A DNA stretch of 64,000 nucleotides from Candidatus Gottesmanbacteria bacterium RIFCSPHIGHO2_02_FULL_39_11 (lineage in GTDB: Bacteria; Patescibacteriota; Microgenomatia; 2-02-FULL-39-11): positions 3,226-67,225 of the forward strand of contig MFJL01000026.1 of the NCBI GenBank assembly GCA_001779195.1, read 5' to 3'. The notes below the pieces were generated by a model. It searched no databases. It saw only the letters and a program-made list of their open reading frames with translations, and was not told the origin of the DNA. This document shows, piece by piece, positions 29,376-59,268 of this stretch. The position numbers were made by a program, and so were the translations under genes. The number at the start of each line of letters is the position of its first letter. Within the stretch, counting starts at the first letter, position 1.

Positions 29376-29466
29376 TGTCATTCATAACTTCATGTGCGAT
29401 CAAACATAGACTCCCGCCTTCCCATAAAAACTCTAACGAGTTTTCAGGGTAAACGCGGGAATGACA
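29376..29466. repeat. palindromic intergenic repeat, family A module (TGTCATTC ... GGGTAAACGCGGGAATGACA), inverted orientation
   Basis: The same ~55-nt core recurs at 52741-52797, 55583-55635 and 57927-57985. Confidence 0.7.
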
Positions 29467-29470
29467 TCTC

Positions 29471-29782
29471 CTACTTTTTCTTTTTCTTCTCTTCTTTTTT
29501 AGTCTCTTTCTCTTTTTCCTCTTCGGGCACATCTCCGAGCTGTTCATCAGTTGCGGTAAGAATTGAGAACAATATAAACCCAGCAAATACCGGCATTATA
29601 AGAGTAAATCGGGTTACTTCATCTTTTACTTTAACCAAAATTCCAAGCGTTAAAATAACGGCAATAACCGCCGCCCAAACCATGGGCTTGTTTTCTTTGT
29701 ATATTTTATTTAAGAGTTTCATAAATAGGATATTAATTATTAATAGTACCATTATGCTATGGTAAGGTAGTATAATTGTCAA
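29471..29782 (-). CDS. small membrane protein with K/E-rich C-terminal tail
   Basis: Three TM helices then EEEKEKETKKEEKKKKK. Confidence 0.3.
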   Translation of the reverse strand: MTIILPYHSIMVLLIINILFMKLLNKIYKENKPMVWAAVIAVILTLGILVKVKDEVTRFTLIMPVFAGFILFSILTATDEQLGDVPEEEKEKETKKEEKKKKK

Positions 29783-29786
29783 GGTT

Positions 29787-30650
29787 ATGAAGTCGGGCTA
29801 CGTCGCAATCACCGGAAAACCAAATGTAGGGAAGTCTACACTTCTTAATAATATTTTGGGACAAAAAGTATCTATCACCTCTCCCAAGCCGCAGACTACT
29901 AGGCAGTCCATCGAAGCCGTGTATGAAGATAAGAGAGGTCAGATAATTTTTGTCGATACTCCGGGAATTTTTAAAAAAGTTGAAGATCCGGTTTCTGCAA
30001 AAATAAACCTCGTTGCTCCAAAAGCTTTGGGTAGGGAAATCGCCGTTGCTGTCTATGTAATTGATCCATCCCGGGAACGGGATGAGGAAGACAATAAAGT
30101 TTTGGGGATGGTGCGTAAAATGAAAATTCCGAAAATTCTCGCTATAAATAAAATGGATATTAAGCATCCTTCTTTTCTTCCCCACTATAAATTCATGGAA
30201 GAAGAATTTGATAAAGTTGTCACCATATCGGGAATGTATAAATTAAACACCAACTATCTTATAGATGCCATTTTCGAATTACTTCCGGAAGGGGAGCCCA
30301 TCGTTAAACCGGGACCGCGTGCTACTCCTCTTTTAAATTTGGACAGCAAGCTTTTTATAGGAGAGCTTATACGGGAAAAAGCATATATATTCCTAAGAAA
30401 AGAACTTCCCTATACATTGGGAACGGTTGTTGATGAAGTTACGGAAAGAGACCAAAATTTGACGTATGTAAAAGCCCGGATTCTGACAACTACTGATAAA
30501 TATAAAAAAATGATTATTGGGAGTCACGGAAGAATGATAAAAGAAATCGGAATGGCGGCACGGAAAGAACTGGAAACTGCAACCGGAAAAAAATTCTTCA
30601 TAGATCTGACTGTTGAAGAAAACCCTCACTGGATAGAGACATTACTATAA
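29787..30650 (+). CDS. era: GTPase Era
   Basis: G1 GKPNVGKST, G3 DTPG, G4 NKMD, C-terminal KH domain. Confidence 0.9.
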   Translation: MKSGYVAITGKPNVGKSTLLNNILGQKVSITSPKPQTTRQSIEAVYEDKRGQIIFVDTPGIFKKVEDPVSAKINLVAPKALGREIAVAVYVIDPSRERDEEDNKVLGMVRKMKIPKILAINKMDIKHPSFLPHYKFMEEEFDKVVTISGMYKLNTNYLIDAIFELLPEGEPIVKPGPRATPLLNLDSKLFIGELIREKAYIFLRKELPYTLGTVVDEVTERDQNLTYVKARILTTTDKYKKMIIGSHGRMIKEIGMAARKELETATGKKFFIDLTVEENPHWIETLL

Positions 30651-30654
30651 GAAT

Positions 30655-31251
30655 TTATTTTAATGGTTTTTTTACTAAATATTCTTTTACTTTATTAAAT
30701 GCTTTTCCGCGATGACTTATTTGGTTTTTTTCTTCCATACTTGCCTCTGCAAAGGTTTTCTTCAGGTCAAATGAATAAAAGATGGGATCGTATCCAAATC
30801 CGTTTCCTCCATCGGGCTTTGTGGTAATTTTCCCTTCACTTATTCCTTCAAACGTTTTTATTTCTTTGGTTAAGGGATTGTATAAAGCAACAACTTCACA
30901 GTACCGGGCAGATCTTTTACCTTCGGGAATATTTTTCATTTCTTTAAGGATCTGGCTGGTCCGATCAGAGTCACTCCCTTCACTATATCGGGCAGAGTAT
31001 ATTCCGGGTTTCCCACCTAAAGCATCTATTTCAAGCCCTGAGTCCTCCGCAAGAGTTAACAGACCGGTTTTTTCTCCCCAATACTGTGCTTTTAATCGTG
31101 CATTTTCCTCAAATGTTTTTCCCGTTTCTTCCGCTTGACCGTGCTTATTAATATCCTTAGGTGAAACAACTCCCAGAGATAAATCCTTAATTAATTCTTT
31201 AATTTCCTGAAGTTTATGAGCGTTTGTGGTTGCAATAAGAAGTTTTTGCAT
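30655..31251 (-). CDS. rdgB: non-canonical purine NTP pyrophosphatase (RdgB/Ham1)
   Basis: LLIATTNAHKLQEI N-terminus; Ham1 family length and motifs. Confidence 0.85.
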   Translation of the reverse strand: MQKLLIATTNAHKLQEIKELIKDLSLGVVSPKDINKHGQAEETGKTFEENARLKAQYWGEKTGLLTLAEDSGLEIDALGGKPGIYSARYSEGSDSDRTSQILKEMKNIPEGKRSARYCEVVALYNPLTKEIKTFEGISEGKITTKPDGGNGFGYDPIFYSFDLKKTFAEASMEEKNQISHRGKAFNKVKEYLVKKPLK

Positions 31252-31266
31252 GAATTATTGGGGTAA

Positions 31267-32682
31267 TTAGACTAATTTTAATCTTTCTGTACTCTCTTCT
31301 TTCCCCAAAATTTCCATCGATTCATTTAAGGGTGGACTTACTTTTCGTCCGGTAACTGCTATTCTTACCGCCATAAAATAATCCGATGATTTTTTGCCGG
31401 TCTCGTTGACAACTTGTTGCATTGCTTCCCCAATAGATACAGCATCCCATTTTTTAACCGATTTTAATTTTTCCGAAGTTTTAGCAAAAATATCTTTCCA
31501 CGCTTTAATATCAATTTCATAAGCAGTCGGTTTTTCAAAAAAGAAAGAACTAAGAGGTAAATAATCGGAAAACTTTTTTATTCTCTCTTTAACCAGAGGA
31601 ATTGTTTTTCCAATAATTTCTTCCGGATAGTTATGATCTAAATAATTTGAAATTTGATCTTTGAGCTTTGGATTTTCCGTTTTACGGATATATTCCCCGT
31701 TTACCCACTCCAGTTTTTTCAAATCAAAAGAAGGGCCTACTGCTTTAAGATGTGCGATATCAAACTTTTTTATCATTTCCTCTATCGTGTATATCTCGAT
31801 ATCACCCGGATAAGACCATCCCATCTGTGCAAGATAATTTAAAATTGCTTCGGGCAAAAATCCCTGATCTTTATACCAACTAGCCCACACGGGATTTTTT
31901 CTTTTGGAAAGTTTTGAGTGATCCGGATTTCTGATAAGGGGCACATGACAAAATACAGGCAATTCCCAACCCAGATAGTGATAAAGAAGAATATGTTTTG
32001 GGGTGGACGAAATCCAGTCTTCGGCACGAATTACATGAGATATTCCCATAAGATAATCATCAACGACAACTGCTAAATGATAGGTGGGATATCCATCTGA
32101 TTTTAAAAGCACCTGATCATCAATAAGTTTATTTTCAAATGTGACTTTCCCCCGTATTACATCTTCAAACTGAGTAGTTCCGCTATCTGGTACATTTAAT
32201 CGAATTACATACTTTTCGTTCAATGATCTTTTTTTTGCTTCTTTAGAATTGATATTTTTGCAAAAGCCATCGTATAAAGTAGGTTCTTTTCTTGCGATTT
32301 GTCCTTTTCTCATTTCCTCAAGCCGTGCACTTGTGCAAAAACAATAATAAGCTTTTCCTTTTCCAACAAGTTCCTCGGCATATTTTTTATAAAAATTGAG
32401 TCTTTCTGATTGACGATATGGTCCATATTTACCTTCTGTATCGGGTCCTTCATCATAATCAAGATCAAACCATTTTAAGGAATTTAAAATCCGTGCTTCT
32501 GACCCCTGTACATACCGGGTCCGGTCGGTATCTTCAATCCGTACGATAAATATGCCGTTATTTTTTTTAGCATAAACGTAGTTAAGTAGAGCTGTGTATA
32601 CATTTCCTATATGAAGATCTTCTCCTGTTGGAGAAGGTGCGATGCGCACTCGGACTGGTTTTATCATGCGCTTATTATACAC
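31267..32682 (-). CDS. gltX: glutamate--tRNA ligase
   Basis: Class I HIGH-type motif (PSPTGEDLHIGN) and KLSKR motif (SKLSKRKN). Confidence 0.9.
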   Translation of the reverse strand: MYNKRMIKPVRVRIAPSPTGEDLHIGNVYTALLNYVYAKKNNGIFIVRIEDTDRTRYVQGSEARILNSLKWFDLDYDEGPDTEGKYGPYRQSERLNFYKKYAEELVGKGKAYYCFCTSARLEEMRKGQIARKEPTLYDGFCKNINSKEAKKRSLNEKYVIRLNVPDSGTTQFEDVIRGKVTFENKLIDDQVLLKSDGYPTYHLAVVVDDYLMGISHVIRAEDWISSTPKHILLYHYLGWELPVFCHVPLIRNPDHSKLSKRKNPVWASWYKDQGFLPEAILNYLAQMGWSYPGDIEIYTIEEMIKKFDIAHLKAVGPSFDLKKLEWVNGEYIRKTENPKLKDQISNYLDHNYPEEIIGKTIPLVKERIKKFSDYLPLSSFFFEKPTAYEIDIKAWKDIFAKTSEKLKSVKKWDAVSIGEAMQQVVNETGKKSSDYFMAVRIAVTGRKVSPPLNESMEILGKEESTERLKLV

Positions 32683-32731
32683 AACTTGCTACTTGATTCG
32701 TAATACGCAATACTTAATAAGCAGCACCTTT

Positions 32732-33784
32732 ATGTCTTCACTGACCCAAATCTCAATAAATGCCCGTAAAGCACTCGTCTTCGGTATTATCCTTTTTGTT
32801 GCATACCTTATATTAAATGCAATTTTCAACGCAGTTCTGAGATCTCTTCAGAAACCTCCACCTCCCTTTATACTCCTTCCTCAAAATGAATACGGACAGC
32901 TTCCCTCACCCAAGTTTACTACCGCTGAAAATACGGCAGGTATTAATCTCACCTTGGAAAATATAGAAGGACATCCTCCCGAATCAACAACCGCGGCAAA
33001 AGTATACAAATTTCCCGAAAGACTTTATACCAGCCTTTCTCTGGACCGGGCACGTGCATTCGGAAGAAATTTAGGATTCAGAGATGAACCCGTTGCTCAG
33101 TCCAAAACGTTATATTTATTCACCGATCCTAATAATCCCTTACGTACTTTACAAATAGATGTGGTGACTTTTAATTTCCAAATAAAATACAACTATGCTC
33201 AAAGTCCTGATCTTTTTAAAAATTTGCCAAATACAGGAAAAGATCAACTGGTGAAGGATGCCAGAAATTTTATCACACCGTTATTTGATTCGACTTTATT
33301 AGGAAATATAAAGAGCGATTATCTTAAAGTAGATGCAACCGGCACACAGCTTGTACCTGCCACTGATCGTTTTGATCCCATTCAGGGAGTGAAAATGAAT
33401 TTTTTCAGACCTAATTTGGACGGATTAAAAATAGTGACATCCCAATTTTTTGAAAGCCAGGTAAATCTGACTCACATACCTACCCCTGACATCAATACCA
33501 GCTTTCTTAATATTTCTTATACCTTTTGGCCTATTGCGTACGACTCATACAGTTTATACGGTATACGCACAGCTCTTCAGGCATGGCAGGATTTAAAAGA
33601 CGGATACGGAGCAGTAATATCTATGGGAAATAATACTCCCGAGAAAGTCGTCATCAGAGATATATATATGGCTTACTATGATTCTGAGGAAGAACAACCA
33701 TACTTGCAGCCGGTATATGTATTTGAGGGAGATAATGATTTTGTAGCGTATGTACCCGCGGTTTCTCCGGAACAATTGAATTAA
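32732..33784 (+). CDS. hypothetical secreted/membrane-anchored protein
   Basis: An internal Met followed by a TM/signal segment; no recognisable domain. Its 3' end overlaps the convergent dac gene by ~130 nt. Confidence 0.3.
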   Translation: MSSLTQISINARKALVFGIILFVAYLILNAIFNAVLRSLQKPPPPFILLPQNEYGQLPSPKFTTAENTAGINLTLENIEGHPPESTTAAKVYKFPERLYTSLSLDRARAFGRNLGFRDEPVAQSKTLYLFTDPNNPLRTLQIDVVTFNFQIKYNYAQSPDLFKNLPNTGKDQLVKDARNFITPLFDSTLLGNIKSDYLKVDATGTQLVPATDRFDPIQGVKMNFFRPNLDGLKIVTSQFFESQVNLTHIPTPDINTSFLNISYTFWPIAYDSYSLYGIRTALQAWQDLKDGYGAVISMGNNTPEKVVIRDIYMAYYDSEEEQPYLQPVYVFEGDNDFVAYVPAVSPEQLN

Positions 33785-34724: not shown

Positions 34725-34769
34725 TCATTTATATGGAGCCGGTTCCCGGTTCTCTCGCGCAGCAAATTG

Positions 34770-36158
34770 TTATCTATTTTTAATCACTTTAATCCCCAAC
34801 TCTTTTAGCTGTTCACTAGAAAGCTGATTGGGAGCATCCATGACGGACGTTCTTCCTCCTGATGTCTGAGGAAAAGCAACTACTTCACGCAAATATTGCT
34901 CATTAGCCAGCATCATAATTAATCTTTCAACTCCAAAAGCGCATCCGCCGTGAGGAGGCGCCCCATAGGAAAATGCCTCCAGCATGTGTCCGAATTTTTC
35001 CCATATTTCTTTTTTTTCGTATCCCAGTATTCCAAAAACTGCTTCCAGAATCTCAGGACGGTGAGCTCTAGTGCTTCCTCCTCCTACTTCAAACCCATTA
35101 CAGACTAAATCATATTGAGTTGTAAGAATACCTTCAATATTTCGCTTATTTAATAAGTCCTTAATAAATTCATCTTTGGGTTTTGAAAACGGATTATGGG
35201 TAAATGTCCATTTTCCTTCTTTGTCTTTTTCAAAAAATGGAAAATCTACAACCCATGCAAATGCTTTTACTCCGTTTTTCTTCTCTTCTTCATTTCTTAA
35301 ATCGAATTTGTCGCTTGCAAATTTTTCCATTGCTTCTTTATAGGTAAGTACTGGAAATGGTTTTTGTTTTATTTTAACGTCAAAACTTTCAAAAACCTGC
35401 GTAATCATTTCCTCCAAAATTTCCATCACATCTTCCCTTTCTATAAAACTCATTTCCAAATCAATTTGGGTATGTTCAAATCCCCGGTCAGCGCGCAAAT
35501 CTTCATCGCGCAGACACCGTGCAATTTGGAAATATCTCTCAAATCCGGCTACCATCAGAAGCTGTTTATATTGCTGGGGTGATTGAGGAAGTGCGTAGAA
35601 ATTTCCCTGCTGAAGTCGGGAAGGTACGACAAAATCCCGCGAGCCTTCAGGAGTTGACTTAGTCAAAAGAGGAGTTTCAATTTCACAAAAATCTTTTGAA
35701 AAAAGAAATTCGCGGACCTTTTGTACAAACTGAGAACGAAGTCTGATGTTTTTAGTAAGTCTGTCTCTTCGAAGATCCAGATATCGATATTTTAATCTCG
35801 ACTCTTCGTTAACATCGTATCCATCGCCGTCAATTGGAATCGGTAATTCTTTTGCTTTTGATACAATCTCAAGGGATTTTATCTCCACTTCGACTTTCCC
35901 GGTTGCTATTTTAGGATTTACCATTTTAACAGGTCTCTCTTTAACCAAACCGGCAATTTTCACAACATCCTCAGTTGTTATATTTTCTTTAAGGTTGACT
36001 CCTACACATTGGATAAACCCGCTCCTGTCGCGAAGATCTATAAACATGACTTTTCCATGATCACGCCGGGTCGCGACCCATCCCATGAGAGTTACTTCTT
36101 TTCCAACTTCTCGAACTGAGTCAGCAATTAATATTCGTTTCATAAATACTCTTGTCAT
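34770..36158 (-). CDS. aspS: aspartate--tRNA ligase, archaeal/eukaryal-type (possibly non-discriminating)
   Basis: Class II motifs, QSPQQYKQ signature of Asp/Asn synthetases, C-terminal GGGSTRAHR...GAPPHGGCAFGVERL; ~460 aa. Confidence 0.75.
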   Translation of the reverse strand: MTRVFMKRILIADSVREVGKEVTLMGWVATRRDHGKVMFIDLRDRSGFIQCVGVNLKENITTEDVVKIAGLVKERPVKMVNPKIATGKVEVEIKSLEIVSKAKELPIPIDGDGYDVNEESRLKYRYLDLRRDRLTKNIRLRSQFVQKVREFLFSKDFCEIETPLLTKSTPEGSRDFVVPSRLQQGNFYALPQSPQQYKQLLMVAGFERYFQIARCLRDEDLRADRGFEHTQIDLEMSFIEREDVMEILEEMITQVFESFDVKIKQKPFPVLTYKEAMEKFASDKFDLRNEEEKKNGVKAFAWVVDFPFFEKDKEGKWTFTHNPFSKPKDEFIKDLLNKRNIEGILTTQYDLVCNGFEVGGGSTRAHRPEILEAVFGILGYEKKEIWEKFGHMLEAFSYGAPPHGGCAFGVERLIMMLANEQYLREVVAFPQTSGGRTSVMDAPNQLSSEQLKELGIKVIKNR

Positions 36159-36203
36159 CCCCGCAATGGATCCTTCTCCCGTCAGGGCGGGGTCAGGATG
36201 ACA
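36154..36203. repeat. palindromic repeat, family D (TGTCATCCCCGC...GCGGGGTCAGGATGACA)
   Basis: Hairpin with TGTCATCC/GGATGACA termini; related copies at 38960-38997 and 55513-55540. Confidence 0.7.
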
Positions 36204-37398
36204 TTTTGTTATATTTCTTTATCGCCATTCCTAAAAGCTCCATTGCTCTTTCAAGTCTTTTCTCTTTAAGAACATAAGCAATCCGTATCTCATCTTTTCC
36301 TTTTCCGCCGCTCGCATAAAATCCGGTCGCCGGAGCAACCATAAGTGTCTCATTTTTGTCGCTGAATTCTTTGAGTAAATATTGGGCAAAGCGGTCGCTG
36401 TCTCTAATTGGAAGCTTCGGAATGATATAAAAAGCTCCCTGAGGAGGAGTGAATTTTGCACCTGTGATCTTTGAAAGACCTGAAACGATTGTATCTCTTC
36501 TGCTTTGATATACTTTTTTAATCTTTTCAGTATAGGATTTCCAATTTTTAAATGCAGGAATCATTGCAAGTTGTTCAATGGTTGCAACCGATAACCGCGA
36601 TTGTGCAAAACGAAGCATCACCTGCATAACTTCGCTGTTTTTACTTGCAACGCAGCCGATCCTTGCTCCGCAGGCATTAAATCTTTTAGATGTTGAATCG
36701 CAAATAATTAACTGGCTATGAATTTCAGAAAAACATATAAAGGGAAGAACTTTTTTATTATCAAAAACAATTTCCTGATACGTTTCGTCAGAAATAATAA
36801 ATAAATTATGTTCTTTTGCAATTTCAACAATTGTTTCTACTTCCTCATCTGTATAAACAGTCCCGGTAGGATTATTTGGGTTGCATACTACAATCCCTTT
36901 TGTTTTTTTGCCGATTGCCCTCTCTATAATTTCTTTTTTCGGCAGGTGAAATCCGTCCTCTACATGCGTCATGACAGGTTTTAAAACAATATCTCCCATA
37001 CGGGCAATGATGGCATAGCTTGTGTAAAAGGGGTCAAAAACCAAAAGCTCATCACCCGGATCACACACCGTAAAGAAAGCAAAAATAAGCCCTTCAGATC
37101 CTCCTGCTGTAACTATAATATCGTGATCTTCAATGGGATACTGCTTTGACCGGTAAAATTCTCCCCAGGCATGAATGGTTTCCGGAAATCCTAATGACGG
37201 AGCGTATTCCAAAGTTGTAAGCTTCAGTCTATGAATCTCTTTAAAAACTTCTGGAGGAGTAGGAAGATCCGGTTGCCCGATATTTACATGATAAACTGTC
37301 CTTCCCTTCTTTTTTGCTTCCTCAGCAAATGGCACAAGTTTTCGAATAGCTGATGAAGGAGTTTGGCGCCCCCGATTTGAAATGGATATTTTTTTCAT
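36193..37398 (-). CDS. PLP-dependent aminotransferase, class I/II (aspartate aminotransferase-like)
   Basis: Fold-type I length with a conserved SKRF lysine region. Confidence 0.75.
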   Translation of the reverse strand: MKKISISNRGRQTPSSAIRKLVPFAEEAKKKGRTVYHVNIGQPDLPTPPEVFKEIHRLKLTTLEYAPSLGFPETIHAWGEFYRSKQYPIEDHDIIVTAGGSEGLIFAFFTVCDPGDELLVFDPFYTSYAIIARMGDIVLKPVMTHVEDGFHLPKKEIIERAIGKKTKGIVVCNPNNPTGTVYTDEEVETIVEIAKEHNLFIISDETYQEIVFDNKKVLPFICFSEIHSQLIICDSTSKRFNACGARIGCVASKNSEVMQVMLRFAQSRLSVATIEQLAMIPAFKNWKSYTEKIKKVYQSRRDTIVSGLSKITGAKFTPPQGAFYIIPKLPIRDSDRFAQYLLKEFSDKNETLMVAPATGFYASGGKGKDEIRIAYVLKEKRLERAMELLGMAIKKYNKMSS

Positions 37399-37401
37399 AA
37401 C

Positions 37402-38901: not shown

Positions 38902-38911
38902 ATAATGAATA

Positions 38912-38997
38912 TGTCATTCTGAGCGGAGCGAAGAATCCCGACCGATTGCATAATCCCAACGGGATCCTTCCCCCCGCGAACGGGGATCAGGATGACA
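38912..38997. repeat. composite palindromic repeat (TGTCATTCTGAGCGGAGCGAAGAATCC + family D module)
   Basis: Sits between recJ and PEPC; seen directly. Confidence 0.7.
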
Positions 38998-38999
38998 AC

Positions 39000-42049: not shown

Positions 42050-42142
42050 ATCAAAACGGAACGAGTTACAAATACCTTCCGGCTTCAAAGTATTTAAAAC
42101 GGAACGGATTACAAATACCTTCCGGCTTAAAACTTAGTTCTT

Positions 42143-42487: not shown

Positions 42488-43383
42488 TATTTTTTCTTCC
42501 TCTCTTCCCACAAAACTAATAATGGTGCTGCGTTAAATATGGATGAGTAAGTACCCGATAGTATACCGATTAATAGTGCTACGGCAAACCACCGGATGGA
42601 CTCTCCTCCGAAAAGAACGAGTGCCAGAATAGTGAGAAGTACAGTCAAAGATGTAGAAAGAGAACGGACGAGTGTCTGATTCATTGAGAAATTCACTATT
42701 TCTGAAAAATGTACTTCCGGCATTTTACGAAGATTTTCCCGGACCCGGTCAAAAACAACGATGGTATCATGTACGGAAAATCCCATGACAGTCAGAAGTG
42801 CTGTTATAAAAAGACTATCAACTTCAACTTTTAAGAAATGTCCGAGTATTGAAAATAGACCGACAACAACCAAAACATCATGGATAAGGGCAACTACTGC
42901 GCATACTCCGAATGCAATCGGGGAATACGGTTTGGGAATTTTGCGAAACGACCAGGCAATATACAAAATGATAAACAGAGAAGCAACGAGTACTGCCTTA
43001 ACGGCATTGAGTGTCGTTTCCTGACCTACACTCGGTCCAACTGTCTCGTATTTTTTCTGAATAACGGTACCCCCTATTTCTTTTTCAGCTGAGGATAGAA
43101 TCTCCCGACTTTTATTTACGTCAATCGGTTTCATTCTCAGTAAATACGAATCATCACCTGCCTCTGCAACGGATGCTACCTCTACTCCGCTTTTTACAAT
43201 CACATCTTTCAGTTTTTCTTTTGAGAATCCAGGAGACGGATTTTTTATCTGATACTCAAGAAGAGTTCCTCCGGTAAAATCAATGGAAGGACTAAGACCC
43301 CACAAGATAAGCGAAATAGTACCCGGAATAATAATAAGACCGGAGATAATAAAATAGAGGGTTTTTTTCCCGATGATATTCAT
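42487..43383 (-). CDS. secF: protein translocase subunit SecF
   Basis: Six-TM SecF pattern with conserved N-terminal region. Confidence 0.85.
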   Translation of the reverse strand: MNIIGKKTLYFIISGLIIIPGTISLILWGLSPSIDFTGGTLLEYQIKNPSPGFSKEKLKDVIVKSGVEVASVAEAGDDSYLLRMKPIDVNKSREILSSAEKEIGGTVIQKKYETVGPSVGQETTLNAVKAVLVASLFIILYIAWSFRKIPKPYSPIAFGVCAVVALIHDVLVVVGLFSILGHFLKVEVDSLFITALLTVMGFSVHDTIVVFDRVRENLRKMPEVHFSEIVNFSMNQTLVRSLSTSLTVLLTILALVLFGGESIRWFAVALLIGILSGTYSSIFNAAPLLVLWEERKKK

Positions 43384-43393
43384 GATTTGCTTT

Positions 43394-43494
43394 TGTCATT
43401 CCCGCGAAGGCGGGAATCCAATCATTTAGATAAAAATACTAATAATAAAACTTATTTATTAAGGAGTGGATCCCGGGTCAAGCCCGGGATGACA
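43394..43494. repeat. composite palindromic repeat (TGTCATTCCCGCGAAGGCGGGAATCC ... GGATCCCGGGTCAAGCCCGGGATGACA) between secD and secF
   Basis: Two hairpin modules with an AT-rich spacer fill the 117-nt secD-secF gap. Confidence 0.7.
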
Positions 43495-43500: not shown

Positions 43501-44829
43501 TTAATCCTTATAAATCATTCCTAAAAACGTTCTGGTAATTACAACCGCGCTAAAAAGTGAAACTAAAATACCGATTGCCAAAGTGATTGCAAAGCCTCTT
43601 ATGGTTCCGCTCCCAAAGTAATACAAAATACCGCATGTCAGAAGTGAGGATACATTTGAATCCCGAATAGACGGATATGCCCGGTCAAAACCCAATCTAA
43701 GCGCGGATACAAAACTGTGTCCCCATCCCCTCTCTTCTTTCATTCTCTCAAATATTAAAATATTGGCATCAACCGCCATTCCAACTGATAGAATAAACCC
43801 GGCAATTCCTGCAAGAGTCAGAGTGACCGGAATAATTTTAAATATAGCAAGAGTTAGAAATGTATAGATAACCAGTGCACAAACGGCGACTATTCCTAAA
43901 ATTCCGTACTGGACGATCATAAAAACAGCAATAATAGTAAGCCCAATTCCGCCCGCTAGTAAACTTTTATCAATGGATGACTGTCCCAGAGTTGCTCCGA
44001 TGTTTCTTTCTTCAATAGGCTTAAGAGGAACGGGAAGCGCGCCTGCGTTTAGGGCAATTGAGAGTTTTTTTGCTTCATCTACTCCAAAACTTCCGTTAAT
44101 AACCGCTTTTCCTCCGTCGATTCTCTCGCTTACGTTCGGAGCTGAAAGAAGCTCGTTATCCAAAAATATCGCCAGTGTCTTTCCTATGTTTCGAGAAGTA
44201 ATGTCTGAAAATAGCTTTGATCCGGCTTCATCAAACTCCAAAGATACCTGCGGAACTCCTGTTTTCGGATCAAAGGTAACTTCAGATTTTTTCAGCTGTT
44301 TGCCTGTCAGTTTTGTCTCTTTAGGCCAGACTTCCAACAGACCTGACGGTGTTGCTACTTTGGCGCTTTCAGATGCTTCCTCCCGAAAAGTCAGTTGGGC
44401 AGTTTTGCCGATAAGATCAACCGCCTGGTGTACATCAGTCACCCCCGGAATTTCTGCAATAATCCGGTATGAGTTTCCCACTTTTGACTGCTGAATAACC
44501 GGCTCGGTAAGACCATACAGATTTACCCGTCTTTCAACAACCGTTTTAGCAGCATCAAAAGCACTTTTCCTGTCACTTTCGGCAACCCCGGTCATATCAG
44601 CCTCTAAAACCAGATGGGTTCCTCCGGAGAGGTCCAAACCAAATTTAGGAGGAAATGACTTTACGATATTAATTGGCCCTAAATGAATATTAAATTCAAG
44701 AGGATGAAGAGTACGGTTAATGTTAATTGGTCCGGCGTGAATATTCAAAGGAACACTGGGGATGTTAATAAGAACCGCGTAAAGGGTAATGATAAAAATG
44801 ATACCGATAAGAAATTTATTTTGTCTCAT
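43501..44829 (-). CDS. secD: protein translocase subunit SecD
   Basis: Periplasmic P1 domain plus C-terminal 6-TM core (LDLSGGTHLVLEAD). Confidence 0.85.
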   Translation of the reverse strand: MRQNKFLIGIIFIITLYAVLINIPSVPLNIHAGPININRTLHPLEFNIHLGPINIVKSFPPKFGLDLSGGTHLVLEADMTGVAESDRKSAFDAAKTVVERRVNLYGLTEPVIQQSKVGNSYRIIAEIPGVTDVHQAVDLIGKTAQLTFREEASESAKVATPSGLLEVWPKETKLTGKQLKKSEVTFDPKTGVPQVSLEFDEAGSKLFSDITSRNIGKTLAIFLDNELLSAPNVSERIDGGKAVINGSFGVDEAKKLSIALNAGALPVPLKPIEERNIGATLGQSSIDKSLLAGGIGLTIIAVFMIVQYGILGIVAVCALVIYTFLTLAIFKIIPVTLTLAGIAGFILSVGMAVDANILIFERMKEERGWGHSFVSALRLGFDRAYPSIRDSNVSSLLTCGILYYFGSGTIRGFAITLAIGILVSLFSAVVITRTFLGMIYKD

Positions 44830-47523: not shown

Positions 47524-47524
47524 C

Positions 47525-47631
47525 ACGACTTACTATGTAAGTCGTCATCCTGAACTTGATTCAGCCTGCCTGCCGGCAGGCAGGGATCCAGAAATTAACT
47601 AACTGGATTCCGGGTCAAGCCCGGAATGACA
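47525..47631. repeat. composite palindromic repeat (hairpin acgacttac/gtaagtcgt; GTCATCCTGAAC...; cctgcctgcc/ggcaggcagg; GGATTCCGGGTCAAGCCCGGAATGACA)
   Basis: Several perfect hairpins concatenated, seen directly. Confidence 0.7.
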
Positions 47632-48728: not shown

Positions 48729-48736
48729 GGTGAGAA

Positions 48737-49594: not shown

Positions 49595-49623
49595 TTGACA
49601 AAAGCCGCAAAAGAAGATATATT
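49595..49623 (+). promoter_or_regulatory. sigma70-type promoter TTGACA-N17-TATATT for leuA leader
   Basis: Consensus -35 at 49595-49600 and -10 at 49618-49623, seen directly. Confidence 0.6.
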
Positions 49624-49722
49624 TTCTATAGTGTGATTACAAATTCTCTTTCAAACCTTTTAAATCTCCTCCTTCTTGGAGGCATTTAATGGGGTTTGAG
49701 AGAGCCAAAGTTTTAGAATAAG

Positions 49723-49745
49723 TCTCTCGAAAGAGAGATTTTTTT
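49723..49745 (+). terminator. intrinsic terminator-like hairpin tctctc-gaaa-gagaga + T7 within the leuA 5' leader
   Basis: Perfect 6-bp stem and 7 T residues. An upstream GAGAGAG (49699-49705) could alternatively pair with the 5' arm as an antiterminator. Confidence 0.5.
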
Positions 49746-49834
49746 ATGCAGCCGTTGCCGATTCTGAGTTTGACGAAGAAGCGGTTTACGGATGCATAAT
49801 CCGCCGAAGCCTTGGCGAAGGCGGATATTACCTT

Positions 49835-51334: not shown

Positions 51335-51336
51335 TT

Positions 51337-52734: not shown

Positions 52735-52740
52735 ACATAC

Positions 52741-52826
52741 TGTCATTCCCACGTTTACCCTGAAAAGTTCGCTTTTTAGGGAAGGCGGGAATCCATCCTG
52801 GATCCCGGATCAAGTCCGGGATGACA
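52741..52826. repeat. composite palindromic repeat (family A + family B modules) between leuC and leuD
   Basis: TGTCATTCCCACGTTTACCCTGAAAAGTTCGCTTTTTAGGGAAGGCGGGAATCC + TGGATCCCGGATCAAGTCCGGGATGACA. Confidence 0.75.
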
Positions 52827-52836
52827 AATAATATAT

Positions 52837-53424
52837 ATGAAAAAAATTCACAAAATCACTTCTCATACTCTCCCATTAAAACACGAGAACATCGACACAG
52901 ACCAAATTATCCCTGCTAAATTTCTTAAAACCACAGTGCGGGAAGGAATCGGGGAGTTTTTCTTCCATGCATGGCGGGAGGATAAAGATTCCGTTTTTCA
53001 TTCTTCTAAGCATAAAGGGGCCAAAATACTTTTGGCAGGAAAAAACTTCGGAATCGGAAGTTCCCGCGAGCATGCTGTGTGGGCAACACTGGATTACGGA
53101 TTTGATGCCGTTATTTCTTCTTCGTTTGGAGACATTTTTTACAACAACTCGTTAAAAAACGGCCTTATTCCTGTCAAAATCGCACACAGCGAACTTTTGG
53201 AACTGTTTGGATTGGTTGAAAAAGACCACACCACCATTATCGAAGTAAATTTGGAGAGTGAGGAAATTCATCTTCCCAAACACGGAAAAAAATATAAATT
53301 CCCGATTGATCCTTTCCGGAAACAGCTTTTGTTAAATGGAACAGATGAATTAGGGTATCTTTTGACACTCGATAAAGAAATTTCAGAATTTGAAAATAAA
53401 CATAAAGGATTTGTGAATAATTAA
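52837..53424 (+). CDS. leuD: 3-isopropylmalate dehydratase small subunit
   Basis: Aconitase swivel domain, 195 aa. Confidence 0.9.
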   Translation: MKKIHKITSHTLPLKHENIDTDQIIPAKFLKTTVREGIGEFFFHAWREDKDSVFHSSKHKGAKILLAGKNFGIGSSREHAVWATLDYGFDAVISSSFGDIFYNNSLKNGLIPVKIAHSELLELFGLVEKDHTTIIEVNLESEEIHLPKHGKKYKFPIDPFRKQLLLNGTDELGYLLTLDKEISEFENKHKGFVNN

Positions 53425-53445
53425 TTATCATCTAAAAAATATTCA

Positions 53446-53471
53446 GATCCTGAAACAAGTTCAGGATGACA
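53446..53471. repeat. palindromic repeat, family C (GATCCTGAAACAAGTTCAGGATGACA) between leuD and leuB
   Basis: Perfect hairpin ATCCTGAAC/GTTCAGGAT; the same unit recurs at 59205-59231. Confidence 0.7.
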
Positions 53472-53477
53472 TAAGAT

Positions 53478-54542: not shown

Positions 54543-54548
54543 TTTTCT

Positions 54549-55502
54549 TTAAATTTTCGTTAGCCAATTTTTATATTTGTTATTTCTCCCTCTCACAATG
54601 TCAAAAAAGAGTTTCTGAAGTTTTCCGGTGACGGGTCCAATTTTACCATCACGTATTTTCCTTCCGTCAACTTCTGAAATCCATGCCACCTGCGCGCCGG
54701 TTCCTGACAGAAAACACTCATCTGAAATATATACCTCACTCCTATCTACTTCCCGTTCCTCAACCGGAATATGAAGATCACGGGCAAGCTGAATAATGGA
54801 ACGCCTGGTAATTCCTTCTAAAATATCTGAATAGTTAGATGGGGTGATAAGCACACCATCCCTTACCATAAAGAAATTTGCGGCAGATCCTTCAGTAATG
54901 TGGCCTTCTGATGTCATCATTAGAGCGTCATCAAATCCCAAGCTTTCAGCGTCTCCTTTTGCCAACGATGAGTTAATATATGCTCCTGTAACTTTTGCCC
55001 GTGCCGGAATCATCACATCTGAAATCCGTATCCAGTTTGAAATCATCAGTTTCAATCCTTTGTGTATCGGCAGGTACTCCCCCAGAGGGATCATGTATAT
55101 CGCAAAATCAAAGACCGCTTCGTGAAGGTTAGGAGATAATCCTAAATTGGATGCATAAGCAAGGGGCCGGAAATAACAATCTGTATCCGGTGCATTTTTC
55201 TTTGCAAGTTCAATGGTAATATCAACCAATTTCTTATGAGAATAAGGAATGGTCTTATTTAAAATATTGAGCGACTTTAAAAACCTTTGATAATGATCCG
55301 CAATTCTGAAAATCGCTACTTCTTTTTTGGGATTTTGGATTTTGGATTTTGGATTTTCTTGTACATACCCCCGTATTCCTCCAAATATTCCCGTCCCGTA
55401 CTGAAGAGCGTTTGTCATAATACTGACCTTTGCTTCACCAATCGGAACTATTTTCCCTTTAAAAAAAACATAGGGAAAAGAGATTTTTGAATTGTTTGTC
55501 AT
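54549..55502 (-). CDS. ilvE: branched-chain amino acid aminotransferase (fold type IV)
   Basis: Class IV aminotransferase motifs; its stop lies 6 nt from the convergent leuB stop. Confidence 0.85.
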   Translation of the reverse strand: MTNNSKISFPYVFFKGKIVPIGEAKVSIMTNALQYGTGIFGGIRGYVQENPKSKIQNPKKEVAIFRIADHYQRFLKSLNILNKTIPYSHKKLVDITIELAKKNAPDTDCYFRPLAYASNLGLSPNLHEAVFDFAIYMIPLGEYLPIHKGLKLMISNWIRISDVMIPARAKVTGAYINSSLAKGDAESLGFDDALMMTSEGHITEGSAANFFMVRDGVLITPSNYSDILEGITRRSIIQLARDLHIPVEEREVDRSEVYISDECFLSGTGAQVAWISEVDGRKIRDGKIGPVTGKLQKLFFDIVRGRNNKYKNWLTKI

Positions 55503-55512
55503 AAAGTTAATA

Positions 55513-55635
55513 TGTCATCCCCGACCAGATCGGGGATCCACTCATTAATAAATAAGTTTTATTCTAAGATTTTTTAAGGATTGGATTCCCGCCTGCCCTA
55601 AAAAGCGAATTTTCAGGGTAAACGCAGGAATGACA
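55513..55635. repeat. composite palindromic repeat (family D + inverted family A) between ilvE and ridA
   Basis: Seen directly. Confidence 0.7.
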
Positions 55636-55659
55636 AAATATTAAATATTTGTAATTAAC

Positions 55660-56085
55660 TTAACAGCATTCTCCTCCGCATCCATCACATCCTTCATCCT
55701 TCATCCGTTTAATATACGCAATACATTCAATTTCAATCGGCGATCCTTTCGGAAGAACAGCAACCTGTACCGTTGCACGAGCAGGGAACGGCTTCTCAAA
55801 ATAAGTTTCATAAACTTTATTCATATCAGAGAATTTCGAAAGATCAGTCATATAAACCGTTGTTTTAAGTACCGATTCCATGCCGGAGCCGGCATCTTCT
55901 AAAATCGATTTGATATTTTCCAAAACTTGTTTTGTTTGTTTTGAAATATCACCCTTTACTATTTCTTTTGTTTTAGGGTTTATGGGAATCTGTCCTGAAA
56001 CAAAAACCAGATCTCCTATAACCACCCCTTGGGAATAGGGGCCAATTGCTTGTGGTGCATTGGGTGTAATAATTTCTTGAATCAT
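55660..56085 (-). CDS. ridA: RidA/YjgF-family reactive enamine/imine deaminase with Cys-rich C-terminal tail
   Basis: PNAPQAIGPYSQGVVIGDLVFVSGQIP RidA core; an extra C-terminal CDGCGGECC. Confidence 0.8.
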   Translation of the reverse strand: MIQEIITPNAPQAIGPYSQGVVIGDLVFVSGQIPINPKTKEIVKGDISKQTKQVLENIKSILEDAGSGMESVLKTTVYMTDLSKFSDMNKVYETYFEKPFPARATVQVAVLPKGSPIEIECIAYIKRMKDEGCDGCGGECC

Positions 56086-56086
56086 G

Positions 56087-57916
56087 TTATTTACCTTTCT
56101 TGTTTAACTGATAATAAAGTTCATTATACCCTCTTACATATGCATCCATGGATGCAACTATCATATCAGGAGATGTTCCTTTTGCAACAATTTCCGTACC
56201 GTCACTTGATACCAAAACCATAGTCACAACAACAGATGCGTTGCTTCCTGAGGTAGGAATCTCAACAAGAAAGTCTTTCAGACGAAAAGAGATGCCGTCA
56301 TATTTATTAATAATTGATTTAATTGCAGAAACCGCAGCATCCACGGGCCCGTCTCCGATACCGTTTGCTGTATATATTTTTCCGTTAAGTTTAACCGTCA
56401 CAAAAACAGACGCTTTTCTGTGTTTAGAATCAGAAAGAGTAAAGTCTTCCAAACTTAGATAATCATTGGGAGACTGATGCTGAAAAATGGTCTCAAGAAT
56501 TGTCTGCAAATCAGCTTTCCCCAGAGATTTTCCTTTCTCTTTTACAAAATGGTTTACCTGTTTTACAACTTTTTTTATGTCGTCTTGTGATAATTGTATG
56601 TCAAATTCATGGTGAATAATTTTCGAAATTTTTTTCTCATCAAAATTTTCATCCAGAAGCTTTTTCTCTTTTTCTGAAGTTTCTGATGTCTTCATGGAAA
56701 GCAAATTTTGGGAAAAAATCCGCTCTACTTCTTTAAGATCCGGTTCAATTGTCGGAGGTGCCGCCATAATTTTTAAAGTTGCCGCAGGGTCTTTAAGCCC
56801 TATACCGGTTGCCACACACACGACCGTATCATCTTTAGAGATAGTTTTAGTCTTTAGCAGTTTTGCCAAAGCAACAATGGTTGTTGCACTGCTGGGCTCG
56901 ATATACAAAGCCTGAGTTTGAGCAAGCATTTTTTGTGCGAGAAGTGCCTCTTCATCAGAGGCATCGGTAATGGTTCCGTGTGTGTTAACTAACGATTCAA
57001 TCACTTTCGGAGCATCAATTGGGAATCCGCATGCGATTGCTCCGCAGATAGTCTGAGGTTTTTGAACCGGCCGGACTTGGTATGAATTTTTATCAGGATA
57101 AATGGAATGACAACCGGAAGCTTGTACTCCGACAATTTTAGGCATTTTTTTAATAAGTCCAAGTCTATAGTACTCATATATTCCTTTATAAATTCCTGAA
57201 AGATGCGTACCCATGCCGATAGGAACTATAATCCAGTCTACATTTCCGCCAGGTACTTGATCCATGATTTCAAAGCCGGTTGATTTCTGACCTTCCTGTC
57301 TAAAAACATAATCTCCTGCAAGATAAAAATTGTATTTTTTGGCAACTTTTTCACACAGCTCGCTTGCTTCATTATAGGTGCTACTTACCTGAATCACCTT
57401 TGCACCATAGGAGAGTGTCTGAGCAAGTTTTCCTTTGGGAGTATTTTCAGGAATAAAGACATAGCAGGCAAGTCCCGCTTGTGCGGAAAATGCAGCAACA
57501 GATGCAGCCATATTGCCTGTTGAAGCCACACACACAGAAGTAAATCCAAGCTCTTTGGCTTTATTTATCTCGACAAAACTTCCCCGATCCTTAAACGCAC
57601 CTGTTGGATTAAGTCCCTCATGCTTAATATAGATATGATCGTTTTTAAGTTTTATTCCCAGTTTTTTTGCATGAATAAGGGGAGTTCCGCCTTCTTTAAG
57701 AGAAACTAAATTTTTCCTGGATTTAAACGGATAAAAATCCAGGTACTTCATAACCGTGGGCTTTGCATTTTCCAACAGATACGGATTCATTTTATTTTTA
57801 AGTTCCTCAAAATTATATTCAATAGTTAAAGCACCTCCGCAGGAAAGACACCGGGAGGTGGTCATTTTTTCATCCGTCTTTTTTTTACATGAGACACACT
57901 GCAGATAGTAATTCAT
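56087..57916 (-). CDS. PLP-dependent ThrC-like enzyme (threonine synthase/dehydratase fold II) with N-terminal Zn-ribbon and C-terminal LeuA-dimer-like allosteric domain
   Basis: Cys4 ribbon (CVSC...CLSC); PLP-lysine signature HEGLNPTGAFKDRGS. The C-terminal ~110 aa match the LeuA_dimer regulatory block (ANGIGDGPVDAAVSAIKSI). Confidence 0.6.
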   Translation of the reverse strand: MNYYLQCVSCKKKTDEKMTTSRCLSCGGALTIEYNFEELKNKMNPYLLENAKPTVMKYLDFYPFKSRKNLVSLKEGGTPLIHAKKLGIKLKNDHIYIKHEGLNPTGAFKDRGSFVEINKAKELGFTSVCVASTGNMAASVAAFSAQAGLACYVFIPENTPKGKLAQTLSYGAKVIQVSSTYNEASELCEKVAKKYNFYLAGDYVFRQEGQKSTGFEIMDQVPGGNVDWIIVPIGMGTHLSGIYKGIYEYYRLGLIKKMPKIVGVQASGCHSIYPDKNSYQVRPVQKPQTICGAIACGFPIDAPKVIESLVNTHGTITDASDEEALLAQKMLAQTQALYIEPSSATTIVALAKLLKTKTISKDDTVVCVATGIGLKDPAATLKIMAAPPTIEPDLKEVERIFSQNLLSMKTSETSEKEKKLLDENFDEKKISKIIHHEFDIQLSQDDIKKVVKQVNHFVKEKGKSLGKADLQTILETIFQHQSPNDYLSLEDFTLSDSKHRKASVFVTVKLNGKIYTANGIGDGPVDAAVSAIKSIINKYDGISFRLKDFLVEIPTSGSNASVVVTMVLVSSDGTEIVAKGTSPDMIVASMDAYVRGYNELYYQLNKKGK

Positions 57917-57926
57917 ATGTTTTCTC

Positions 57927-58046
57927 TGTCATTCCCGCGTTTACCCTGAAAAATTCGCTTTTTAGGGCAGGCGGGAATCCATCGATGGATCCCGGGTCTC
58001 GGAACAATTCTGTCGAATTTTCCGAGTAAACAAGCCCGGGATGACA
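57927..58046. repeat. composite palindromic repeat (family A + expanded family B) between ilvC and thrC-like gene
   Basis: Seen directly. Confidence 0.75.
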
Positions 58047-58050
58047 ATTA

Positions 58051-59103
58051 TTATTTTTTTAAATTTTCCGGTCTTAAGCTTCTAACCATTCTTCCTGCTC
58101 TCCAAATTTCAAGTTCTGACATCTCTTTTAATTCTTTATTTAATTTTTCTTTGTAATCTTTTGTTGCGTTTGCTTTAAGAACCCGTGCTGTTTCTTTCCC
58201 CTCTTTGACACTCTGATATAACTTTTTAAATACCGGCATCACCGCTTTTTTAAACTTCCCCTTCCAATCCAGTGCTCCCCGCTGAGCAGTTGTACTACAA
58301 TTTGCGTACATCCAATCCATTCCACTCTCTGCAACCATTCGGATAAGACTTTGTGTCAGTTCTTCAACCGTTTCGTTAAATGCTTCACTGGGAGTGTGTC
58401 CTTTTTTCCTAAGAGTCTCGTACTGAGCTTCCATAATTCCGGCAAGCGCTCCCATTAAGACTCCCCTCTCTCCGGTCAGATCGCTGTATACTTCATTTTT
58501 AAAATTGGTTTCAAATAAAAACCCCGATCCTATTGCAATTCCCATAGCCAATACTCTTTCTCTAGCACGGCCGGTTGCATCCTGAAAAACCGCAAAACTG
58601 CTGTTTATTCCGCTTCCGTCTAAAAAGTTAGTCCGAACCGATCTTCCAGCGCCTTTCGGAGCAACTAAAATTACATCAATATCTATGGGTGGAATAATTT
58701 TCGTTTGTTCCTTATAGGTAATTCCAAATCCGTGAGAAAAATACAAGGCTTTTCCCTTGGTTAAGTATTTTTTAACATCTGGCCATAACTGCATTTGTCC
58801 TGCATCGGATAACAAATATGCGATAATGGTGCCTTTTTCCAGCGCTTCTTCAATTGAAAATAAATTTTTCCCTTTTTTCCATCCGTCTTTTACGGCTTTA
58901 CCCCAGGAGGGAGATGGATACCTCTGTCCGATAATTACATGAATTCCGTTATCTCTCAAATTCATTGCCTGCGCAGGTCCTTGGACTCCATATCCGATTA
59001 TCGCAACGGTTTCACCTTTTAAGACTTCCTTTGCCTTTTTTAAAGGAAATTCTTCCCGGGTCATAACGGTTTCTAATTCATCTCCGAATTTTATTTTGGA
59101 CAT
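58051..59103 (-). CDS. ilvC: ketol-acid reductoisomerase (class I)
   Basis: Rossmann motif GYGVQGPAQAMNLRDNG and a KARI C-terminal knotted domain. Confidence 0.9.
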   Translation of the reverse strand: MSKIKFGDELETVMTREEFPLKKAKEVLKGETVAIIGYGVQGPAQAMNLRDNGIHVIIGQRYPSPSWGKAVKDGWKKGKNLFSIEEALEKGTIIAYLLSDAGQMQLWPDVKKYLTKGKALYFSHGFGITYKEQTKIIPPIDIDVILVAPKGAGRSVRTNFLDGSGINSSFAVFQDATGRARERVLAMGIAIGSGFLFETNFKNEVYSDLTGERGVLMGALAGIMEAQYETLRKKGHTPSEAFNETVEELTQSLIRMVAESGMDWMYANCSTTAQRGALDWKGKFKKAVMPVFKKLYQSVKEGKETARVLKANATKDYKEKLNKELKEMSELEIWRAGRMVRSLRPENLKK

Positions 59104-59110
59104 AAATTTT

Positions 59111-59268
59111 TGTAAGTGACCTAGAAGCAGTCTCGAAACCTTTACATCTCTGTCATGCTGAATTCATTTCAGCATCTTCAGAAGATTCCTGAACCGAATT
59201 CAGGACAGGCTCTGAAACAAGTTCAGGATGACGGTTTAGAGATGACTTCTAAGTCACTTAAGTAACTT
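59111..59268. mobile_element. MITE-like composite of hairpin modules bounded by ~17-25-bp imperfect terminal inverted repeats (TGTAAGTGACCTAGAAG / CTTCTAAGTCACTTAAGTAACTTAC) between ilvN and ilvC
   Basis: Terminal IRs with 1 mismatch enclose TGTCATGCTGAA..., ATTCCTGAACCGAATTCAGGACAG and family C modules. Confidence 0.45.

Follow-up and report, generated by a model that had tools for sequence, protein, structure and literature searches.

Tagged hairpin repeats in operon spacers of a Candidatus Gottesmanbacteria genome: probable Ssn-related motifs

Two described systems come closest to the palindromic modules that occupy intergenic spacers in a 64,000-nt stretch of Candidatus Gottesmanbacteria bacterium RIFCSPHIGHO2_02_FULL_39_11, a metagenome-assembled genome from Rifle groundwater (contig MFJL01000026.1, positions 3,226 to 67,225; hereafter the window). 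The first is a class of repetitive extragenic palindromes (REPs) that carry the tag CGTC, or TGTC in many repeats and with CCTC also allowed, ahead of a stem of 8–9 bp starting from AT, a loop of 4–5 nt, and a CCA tail (PMC3733652). In this class head-to-head dimers predominate, tail-to-tail dimers are rare, and head-to-tail dimers are negligible. Its members include dRS3 of Neisseria and RPE-4 and RPE-6 of Rickettsia, and the 2013 survey found CGTC REPs to be apparently without a dedicated transposase, with no REP-associated tyrosine transposase (RAYT) flanked by CGTC units (PMC3733652). The second is the system of Chenal et al. (2025), who defined the Neisseria Transformation Sequence (NTS), CGTCATTCCCGCGMAVGCGGGAATCYRG, and the broader Ssn-related motifs (SRMs) (PMC11893778). 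Its enzyme, SsnA, is a 94-aa single-domain GIY-YIG protein, belonging to CDD cd10448, that binds the hairpin only as single-stranded DNA (ssDNA) and cuts a few nt upstream of the tag. It is inactive on double-stranded DNA and on RNA, tolerates changes and extensions of the loop, and limits transformation of Neisseria meningitidis by motif-bearing DNA; homologues of ssnA have the motif nearby in 71% of cases and on both sides in 42% (PMC11893778). We consider it likely that the modules in the window are SRMs, that is, CGTC/TGTC-tagged REPs.

Anatomy, enrichment, and placement of the units

The modules lie in 10 intergenic spacers between 29.4 and 59.3 kb and are built from one kind of unit: an unpaired 5' tag (T/C)GTC, a stem of 8–9 bp that opens with an A-T and then a T-A pair, a loop of 4–6 nt (GAAG, CTTGA, and CCAGA among them), and a CCA tail. 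All units open with TGTC or CGTC. The 11 strict units of the window have a TGTC tag and an 8-bp stem, and the CCA tail is present in 10 of them, as it is in nearly all units of loci L130–L138 outside the window. The stems are of several types, including ATTCCCGC, ATCCCGGG, ATCCTGAA, ATCCCCGA, and one that we call D. The unit at 43394, TGTCATTCCCGCGAAGGCGGGAATCCA, nearly equals the Neisseria NTS, differing essentially by T for C at the first tag base. Because these features agree with the definition of CGTC REPs at every listed point, we place the units in the CGTC-tagged superfamily.

The stems vary in a manner that keeps them paired. In an alignment of 16 short units with 8-bp stems from the window and its sister contigs, 99.2% of stem cells are paired, columns 5/26 (AU) and 6/25 (UA) are invariant, and five of the eight stem pairs are altered on both sides; compensatory changes amount to 24 cells against 7.0 in shuffles, none of 500 of which scored as high. 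Sliding the partners against each other collapses the pairing. G-U pairs make up 1 of 128 stem cells, and the variation is otherwise strictly Watson-Crick.

The units are also strongly enriched. The sequence GGATGACA occurs nine times in the window against 1.47 expected, a count reached in none of 100 shuffles, and GGAATGACA occurs seven times against 0.55. A generic tag-stem-tail pattern, YGTCATYC-N(10-60)-GRATCC, has 13 matches against 0.18 in 100 dinucleotide shuffles, all of them at 36–58 kb. The published degenerate SRM pattern, HGTCWYN(0-2)YYVSBRHN(0-5)WNVSBRGN(0-2)RNCYNB (PMC11893778), has three strict matches against 0.10 in shuffles, or four against 0.13 when its last two positions are dropped. 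Units occur at a density of ∼0.25/kb over the whole window and ∼0.5/kb in a 30-kb core region; unit and pattern searches of positions 1–29 kb found no tagged hairpin.

Units tend to pair, with their tags outward. Among 51 units in the window and eight other loci there are 18 head-to-head pairs, two tail-to-tail pairs, no head-to-tail pair, and 15 singles. The two partners in a dimer always differ in sequence, and it is these tag-outward heterodimers that give rise to the apparent termini TGTCAT(T)CC ... GGA(A)TGACA. When folded as ssDNA, the dimers form multibranch structures closed by the two tags, with z values from -3.4 to -5.8. Loops of 27–43 nt, found in some units, result from a nested insert after the loop G, to which we return below.

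The original prediction, made from the letters alone, had distinguished four families, A to D, and a fifth unit in at least 11 spacers. The observation of repeats is confirmed: we read ten spacers directly and found the quoted module sequences as written at their places, the named gene pairs are right by Pfam, and the elements are indeed GC-rich (57% in short units and 48% in whole elements, against 39% in the window). We count 10 spacers, however, and the families are all variants of a single tagged hairpin; their letters are kept below as labels. The sites, with the flanking genes assigned by Pfam, are as follows.

29376..29466, bacA|era: degenerate dimer of a left TGTCAT tag and a decayed Family A unit, 29408-29466 (-), the latter with a nested insert at 29421-29453 (-); the long-loop SRM pattern matches 29408-29466
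36153..36203, asnS|aminotransferase: compact dimer of a minimal left unit (TGTC-ATCC..GGAT-CC) and a D-type unit, 36168-36203 (-)
38912..38997, archaeal-type phosphoenolpyruvate carboxylase (PEPC)|recJ: head-to-head heterodimer of the unit 38912-38938 (+), TGTCATTCTGAGCGGAGCGAAGAATCC, and a D-type unit, 38962-38997 (-); DNA fold -19.7 kcal/mol, z -3.4
43394..43494, secF|secD: head-to-head heterodimer of a CGTC-1-like unit, 43394-43420 (+), with stem ATTCCCGC, loop GAAG, and tail CCA, and a B unit, 43467-43494 (-), with AT-rich extended tails linking the two; 43466-43494 fits the published SRM pattern; z -5.8
47543..47631, DUF4446|short-chain dehydrogenase/reductase (SDR), divergent: head-to-head heterodimer of a CGTC-tagged unit, 47543-47589 (+), and a B unit, 47604-47631 (-); z -5.5
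52741..52826, leuC|leuD (leuA lies before leuC): head-to-head heterodimer of a Family A unit, 52741-52794 (+) (a CGTC-1 unit whose loop holds a 28-nt TTTAC hairpin, 52754-52781), and a B unit, 52799-52826 (-); z -4.5
53444..53471 (-), leuD|leuB: single C-type unit with stem ATCCTGAA, loop CTTGT, and tail CTG; a possible decayed partner lies at 53426-53449
55513..55635, ilvE|ridA: head-to-head heterodimer of a CGTC-2-like unit, 55513-55540 (+), with loop CCAGA, and a Family A unit, 55583-55635 (-), with a nested insert at 55596-55622; z -3.4
57927..58046, ilvA-like|ilvC: head-to-head heterodimer of a Family A unit, 57927-57980 (+), with an insert at 57940-57967, and a B unit, 57987-58046 (-), with a 33-nt loop insert at 57998-58030; fold -30.6 kcal/mol, z -5.5
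59113..59260, ilvC|ilvN: composite of an 83-nt three-hairpin tagged core, 59151-59233, enclosed by an outer element with 28-nt inverted repeats TAAGTGACCTAGAAGCAGTCTCGAAACC (59113-59140) and GGTTTAGAGATGACTTCTAAGTCACTTA (59233-59260); z -4.8

By family, the copies are these.

Family A: 52741, 57927, 55635 (-), and a degenerate copy at 29466 (-)
Family B: 43467, 47604, 52799, and 57987-58046 (with loop insert)
Family C: 47547, 53444, and 59189-59233
Family D: 36168, 38962, and 55513
Fifth unit: 38912

Two statements about placement had been too general. The modules had been described as lying always between genes, and they nearly do; the aminotransferase ORF (36193-37398, -), however, ends inside a unit, which supplies its last three codons and TGA (36193-36204, ending ...M-S-S-stop), and the predicted C terminus of this protein is thus repeat-encoded. 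Likewise, intra-operon placement does not apply to the bacA|era and DUF4446|SDR spacers, which are divergent; the other eight of 10 sites lie between co-directional genes. The fit of elements to spacers is close. Eight of the 10 spacers have an element edge 2–11 nt from a flanking stop or start codon, and the other two leave a gap of at least 15 nt at either side. In six spacers both edges are within 15 nt of the flanking codons, so that the element occupies nearly the whole spacer.

Much of this is familiar from CGTC-1 to CGTC-4 REPs (PMC3733652), which share with the window units the tag, stems, loops, CCA tail, head-to-head dimers without head-to-tail ones, heterodimers, and placement between co-directional genes, with an overlap of ORF ends in some cases. 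The differences are that the five phyla of that survey did not include the Candidate Phyla Radiation (CPR) and that loops of 27–43 nt created by TTTAC hairpins were not described there. The likeness to the SRM/SsnA system extends to the tag-hairpin-tail plan, the orientation of units, their enrichment in the genome, and, as discussed next, a gene for a ∼95-aa single-domain GIY-YIG protein framed by units on both sides; the enlarged loops seen here are compatible with the loop tolerance reported for SsnA. In contrast to that system, the host here is a CPR bacterium (Ca. Gottesmanbacteria) rather than a proteobacterium and the system is known here from sequence alone, there are at least eight stem types and many nested second hairpins, and nearly all units are packed in heterodimers that fill operon spacers instead of clustering around genes for surface proteins (PMC11893778).

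Dispersal and a candidate partner nuclease

The prediction that these repeats are dispersed was borne out. A scan for the B/C hairpin, with one genome per species and ∼0.1–1 matches expected by chance, found it in at least 120 stretches from many phyla; among the matches listed are Melainabacteria, many CPR lineages, Proteobacteria, Treponema, Bacteroidota, Ignavibacteria, Dehalococcoidia, Elusimicrobia, and others. The Family A core is lineage-specific. It occurs on nine further metagenome stretches, which have only the repeats in common with the window and which hold dozens more units and additional stem variants. The modules are thus not unique to the window. Independent assemblies of the population represented by the window break exactly at units, and repeats of this kind explain assembly breaks at spacers as well as repeat-encoded ORF ends and short "hypothetical proteins" over repeats.

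On another contig, L133, a 97-aa ORF (2274–2567, -) sits exactly between two units, 2243–2266 (+) and 2592–2618 (-). Its product matches the GIY-YIG domain (PF01541) at E = 1.9e-16 and no other domain, and its residues Y9, Y20, and E67 have the same spacing (Y-11-Y-47-E) as the catalytic Y6, Y17, and E64 of N. meningitidis SsnA. The protein, OGG16052.1 of Ca. Gottesmanbacteria, belongs to the same accession series as the proteins of the window (OGG15392–OGG15411). The tetranucleotide signature of the contig correlates with that of the window at r = 0.89, like the window's own copies, and unrelated loci reach at most 0.75. A phmmer search found homologues of OGG16052.1 directly beside the hairpin in four of the ∼120 loci listed with the hairpin pattern alone: one of Flavobacteriales with units on both sides (L069), and one of Bdellovibrionales (L020), one of Kerfeldbacteria (L029), and L107 with a unit on one side each. 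In all, five Ssn-like genes directly adjoin units.

By analogy with the Neisseria and Wolbachia systems, the most likely sequence of events is as follows. The hairpin would form when the DNA is single-stranded, in replication, repair, or the uptake of transforming DNA, and a ∼95-aa single-domain GIY-YIG endonuclease (Ssn) would bind it and nick the ssDNA a few nt 5' of the tag. Framed by two units, the gene for OGG16052.1 forms an insertion sequence-like SRM-ssn-SRM arrangement. Units have spread into short spacers of housekeeping operons in this lineage and, at two or more places, have separated genes whose counterparts in relatives overlap. Binding and cutting of these particular units by Ssn are inferred; the units may have been multiplied by Ssn or by the ssDNA breaks that it makes, and their cellular role could, as in N. 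meningitidis, include restricting the recombination of incoming ssDNA.

Several points weigh against this assignment. First, the literal SRM pattern catches just three or four of the ∼17 units, although most of the units that it misses fail only on the final tail base or an enlarged loop, and the pattern is a narrow test for units of this window. Second, the ssn contig is assigned to the genome of the window by accession series, shared lineage-specific repeats, and composition, not by a physical link. Third, the only PDB relative found for the 97-aa protein is the UPF0213 protein 1ZG2, at E = 1.6e-5, and a search of NCBIfam with the protein returned no family. Fourth, at least eight stem sequences coexist, and a single ssn gene is seen in ∼140 kb; because N. 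meningitidis SsnA is both sequence- and structure-specific (PMC11893778), one enzyme may not serve all unit types, and cutting of the window units by OGG16052.1 would have to be taken from analogy. Finally, a head-to-head dimer places its two predicted cuts on opposite strands, a misfit with single-strand excision in the style of IS200/IS605. Those "peel and paste" elements resemble the present ones in hairpin recognition on ssDNA, cleavage near the foot of the hairpin, and the lack of target duplication, but their two ends lie on one strand, unlike the hairpins of head-to-head dimers.

The association of repeat and nuclease is already published (PMC11893778), and the host lineage, nested hairpins, and empty sites are modest additions. 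If the assignment holds, an uncultured CPR bacterium would join the carriers of the Ssn/SRM system, a hint that SRMs can heavily colonize bacteria with small genomes and a probably episymbiotic lifestyle. The density in the window would correspond to a few hundred units per genome; this figure is an extrapolation, not a count, and it agrees with a published remark that symbionts are overrepresented among SRM-rich genomes. The many stem variants found beside a single small nuclease are natural substrates on which the specificity of Ssn could be mapped, a matter of interest for ssDNA tools.

Nested hairpins and empty sites

A Family A unit is a CGTC-1-type unit, like that at 43394, whose loop G is followed by an inserted "(G)TTTAC + hairpin" of 27–33 nt. 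The class as a whole has a 9-bp stem and a length of 27–43 nt, and when in a loop it always follows the loop G and precedes A. Similar inserts occur in B units after CTTG, at 57998–58030 in the window and in copies in L130, L134, and L135. Some TTTAC inserts host a further SRM-like hairpin, making three nested levels. Sixteen of the 18 TTTAC copies lie in SRM loops; a copy in L136 carries a further TTTAC hairpin, which interrupts the 3' stem arm of the host unit, and a free-standing tandem pair is found in L132 (11535–11610). No TTTAC hairpin was found in 845 kb of loci from other phyla. The composite ilvC|ilvN element recurs as well. Its 83-nt core is identical in five copies, one in the window and four on other contigs, and four of the five lie within the outer element with 28-nt inverted repeats, so that other contigs supply three more full copies and one core-only copy (L131, L135 twice, and L137).

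Three relatives lack units where the window has them. In L129, L127, and L128, whose LeuD is 86%, 76%, and 73% identical to that of the window, respectively, leuC/leuD and leuD/leuB each overlap by 4 nt (ATGA), and the orthologous stretch is free of units. The window has in their place a 102-nt leuC|leuD spacer (52735–52836) and a 53-nt leuD|leuB spacer (53425–53477), both filled by units. At the former, the LeuC C terminus and LeuD N terminus are conserved right to the junction, with a new TAA in place of the overlapping TGA. At the latter, the inserted stretch is ∼71 nt as aligned to the relatives, and leuD has gained five C-terminal codons. Similarly, 157 nt separate ilvE from ridA in the window, compared with 18 nt in L127. 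These empty sites indicate that the units were inserted.

Comparison with the empty sites at leuC|leuD, leuD|leuB, and ilvE|ridA, and inspection of 53 flanks, revealed no consistent target-site duplication; short AT-rich similarities, such as the ACATAA that borders the leuD|leuB insert at either end, are inconsistent between sites and lie in low-complexity flanks, and we rejected them. We likewise considered a cut-site signature in the Gottesmanbacteria units, whose flanks have T at position -5 in 32 of 53 cases and A at -4 equally often, which is where N. meningitidis SsnA cuts. This bias is inflated by repeated copies, and 140 independent units of other phyla do not show it, their sole preference being a pyrimidine at -1; we therefore make no claim about a cut site.

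We propose only tentatively, and think it rather less probable than not, that the TTTAC hairpins are a new mini-hairpin class inserting in SRM loops and, jointly, that the SRM dimers are or were recently mobile in this CPR genome. Nested TTTAC hairpins and evidence of mobility appear in neither PMC3733652 nor PMC11893778 and could be novel. If true, the first would describe an element that targets the single-stranded loop of another element's hairpin. The second would mean that dimers inserted where translationally coupled genes overlap by 4 nt, forcing new stop codons and spacers, and would bear on how CGTC REPs and SRMs multiply and whether Ssn drives it. The comparison with empty sites also offers a clean, datable set of SRM insertions for studying their spread.

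Alternative explanations and neighboring features

Three other explanations of the repeats have to be weighed, the first of which survives best but is still improbable in our judgment: that these are primarily RNA-level elements (intra-operon terminators, attenuators, RNase processing sites, or barriers to 3' exonucleases) selected for the leu/ilv, sec, and other transcripts. REPs of Escherichia coli stabilize upstream mRNA. The hairpins here are stable, and those at the eight co-directional sites would be transcribed; moreover, the secF|secD dimer has a sub-threshold Rfam match to a Francisella small RNA (E = 0.14). Termination, which the original prediction had suggested, is nevertheless unsupported, because no unit is followed by a T-run, the dimers are symmetric with respect to orientation, and the characterized partner enzyme, which acts on ssDNA, shows no RNA binding (PMC11893778). 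None of 39 terminator-like sites at 28–60 kb coincides with a unit, and two dimers lie in divergent spacers. The near absence of G-U pairs argues in the same direction, as does the recurrence of the hairpin across phyla in unrelated contexts beside a gene for a DNA nuclease, and in relatives these operons do without the hairpin, their genes overlapping. A side effect on mRNA, as a 3' exonuclease barrier or processing site, is possible.

The second explanation, to which we give very little weight, is that the modules are miniature inverted-repeat transposable elements (MITEs), deletion derivatives of DDE transposons whose terminal inverted repeats, TGTCATYCC and GGRATGACA, would be acted on in trans by a cut-and-paste transposase. 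The 9-nt inverted termini, the absence of insertions from relatives, and the breaks of assemblies at copies would all be expected of MITEs. The supposed terminal repeats, however, amount to the tag plus the base of the stem in each of two independent units, and such units are also found singly or in many pairings; no transposase was seen, Pfam scans of ∼50 window ORFs having detected neither a Y1 transposase nor any other transposase domain; and the lack of a consistent target-site duplication, described above, speaks against a MITE-type origin, which had also been predicted.

The third, that these are classical GTAG-type REPs, REP doublets (REPINs), or bacterial interspersed mosaic elements (BIMEs) mobilized by RAYT, is equally improbable: the general appearance agrees (extragenic palindromes that are short and GC-rich, bear an unpaired tag on the 5' side, and form inverted dimers able to fold as one larger structure), and in E. 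coli and Pseudomonas a small nuclease gene is likewise framed by its own repeats, but here the tag is TGTC/CGTC rather than GTAG, the framed gene encodes a GIY-YIG protein rather than an HUH/Y1 transposase, and a phmmer search that took E. coli RayT as the query, and all six-frame ORFs from the window plus 138 motif-centered loci (∼1 Mb) as the target, gave a best E of 1.4, in agreement with the 2013 survey (PMC3733652). The earlier REP/BIME-like interpretation is therefore partly supported. It was right in kind, in that dispersed palindromes combine as inverted dimers, and wrong about the partner enzyme, for which the five Ssn-like genes adjoining units are the better candidates; the transcript-level function that it proposed is unsupported.

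Returning to the units as probable SRMs, several smaller readings of their parts as gene signals were set aside. The tag ATGACA scores as a TTGACA-like -35 box at several units, but start codons are just 7–11 nt away. The ATG of a tag could be read as the start of asnS (36156–36158), but a start at 36143 is equally available. The stem GGA lies 13–16 nt from start codons, too far for a Shine-Dalgarno sequence.

Some observations concern the surroundings of particular units. Only tRNA-Gln passes the Rfam gathering threshold in the window, and E ≤ 1 adds just two sub-threshold matches. One is to FtrB, the Francisella small RNA mentioned above, at 43373–43466 on the secF|secD dimer (31.8 bits, gathering threshold 66), and the FtrB family may overlap an SRM-like repeat. 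Within the neighboring secD, the ANAN16 scaffold (L001 1102–1129) has 26 nt in place of 154 nt (window 43758–43911), which is either a population variant or an assembly error; a link to the repeats was considered and rejected, the difference being unrelated to them. The other match, to Phe_leader (E = 0.15), lies upstream of leuA (49595–49747), in a candidate leucine attenuator as judged from its parts: a promoter-like TTGACA-17-TATATT (49595–49623), a GTG-started 18-codon ORF, (M)ITNSLSNLLNLLLLGGI*, with 7 Leu (49633–49689), and a hairpin with a T7 run (49720–49741). Leader-peptide attenuation in a CPR bacterium, if true at leuA, is worth a look.

Positions 1–21000, in the unit-free part of the window, form a metal (copper) resistance island with two paralogous P-type ATPases, HMA-domain proteins, a multicopper oxidase, a cation-efflux protein, and a two-component system. 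The absence of units from 1–29 kb is consistent with recent acquisition of this island. Two places upstream of genes (904–936 and 8283–8329) carry a perfect inverted repeat of 15 bp, CACTGTAAAATTTTT/AAAAATTTTACAGTG, which is probably an operator for a repressor. Three other repeats were noted. A ∼34-nt repeat, ..CCTCCACCCTCCAGGTGGAAATGA, is present in three or four copies (24117–24150, 25081–25114, 26282–26315) near small ORFs, one of them with a HEPN domain, beside the tRNA-Gln gene (26349–26422). A 43-nt tandem duplication, AAAACGGAACGAGTTACAAATACCTTCCGGCTTCAAA, whose two copies are 92% identical, directly follows the gene for the CCA-adding enzyme (42053–42132). Finally, AT-rich 35-nt inverted repeats with reiterated CGAAATCCGAA (63153–63266) lie in a spacer (63145–63476) directly upstream of an ORF (61468–63144, -) that is ILVD_EDD (ilvD-like) on a sister locus, and possibly mark a regulatory region.

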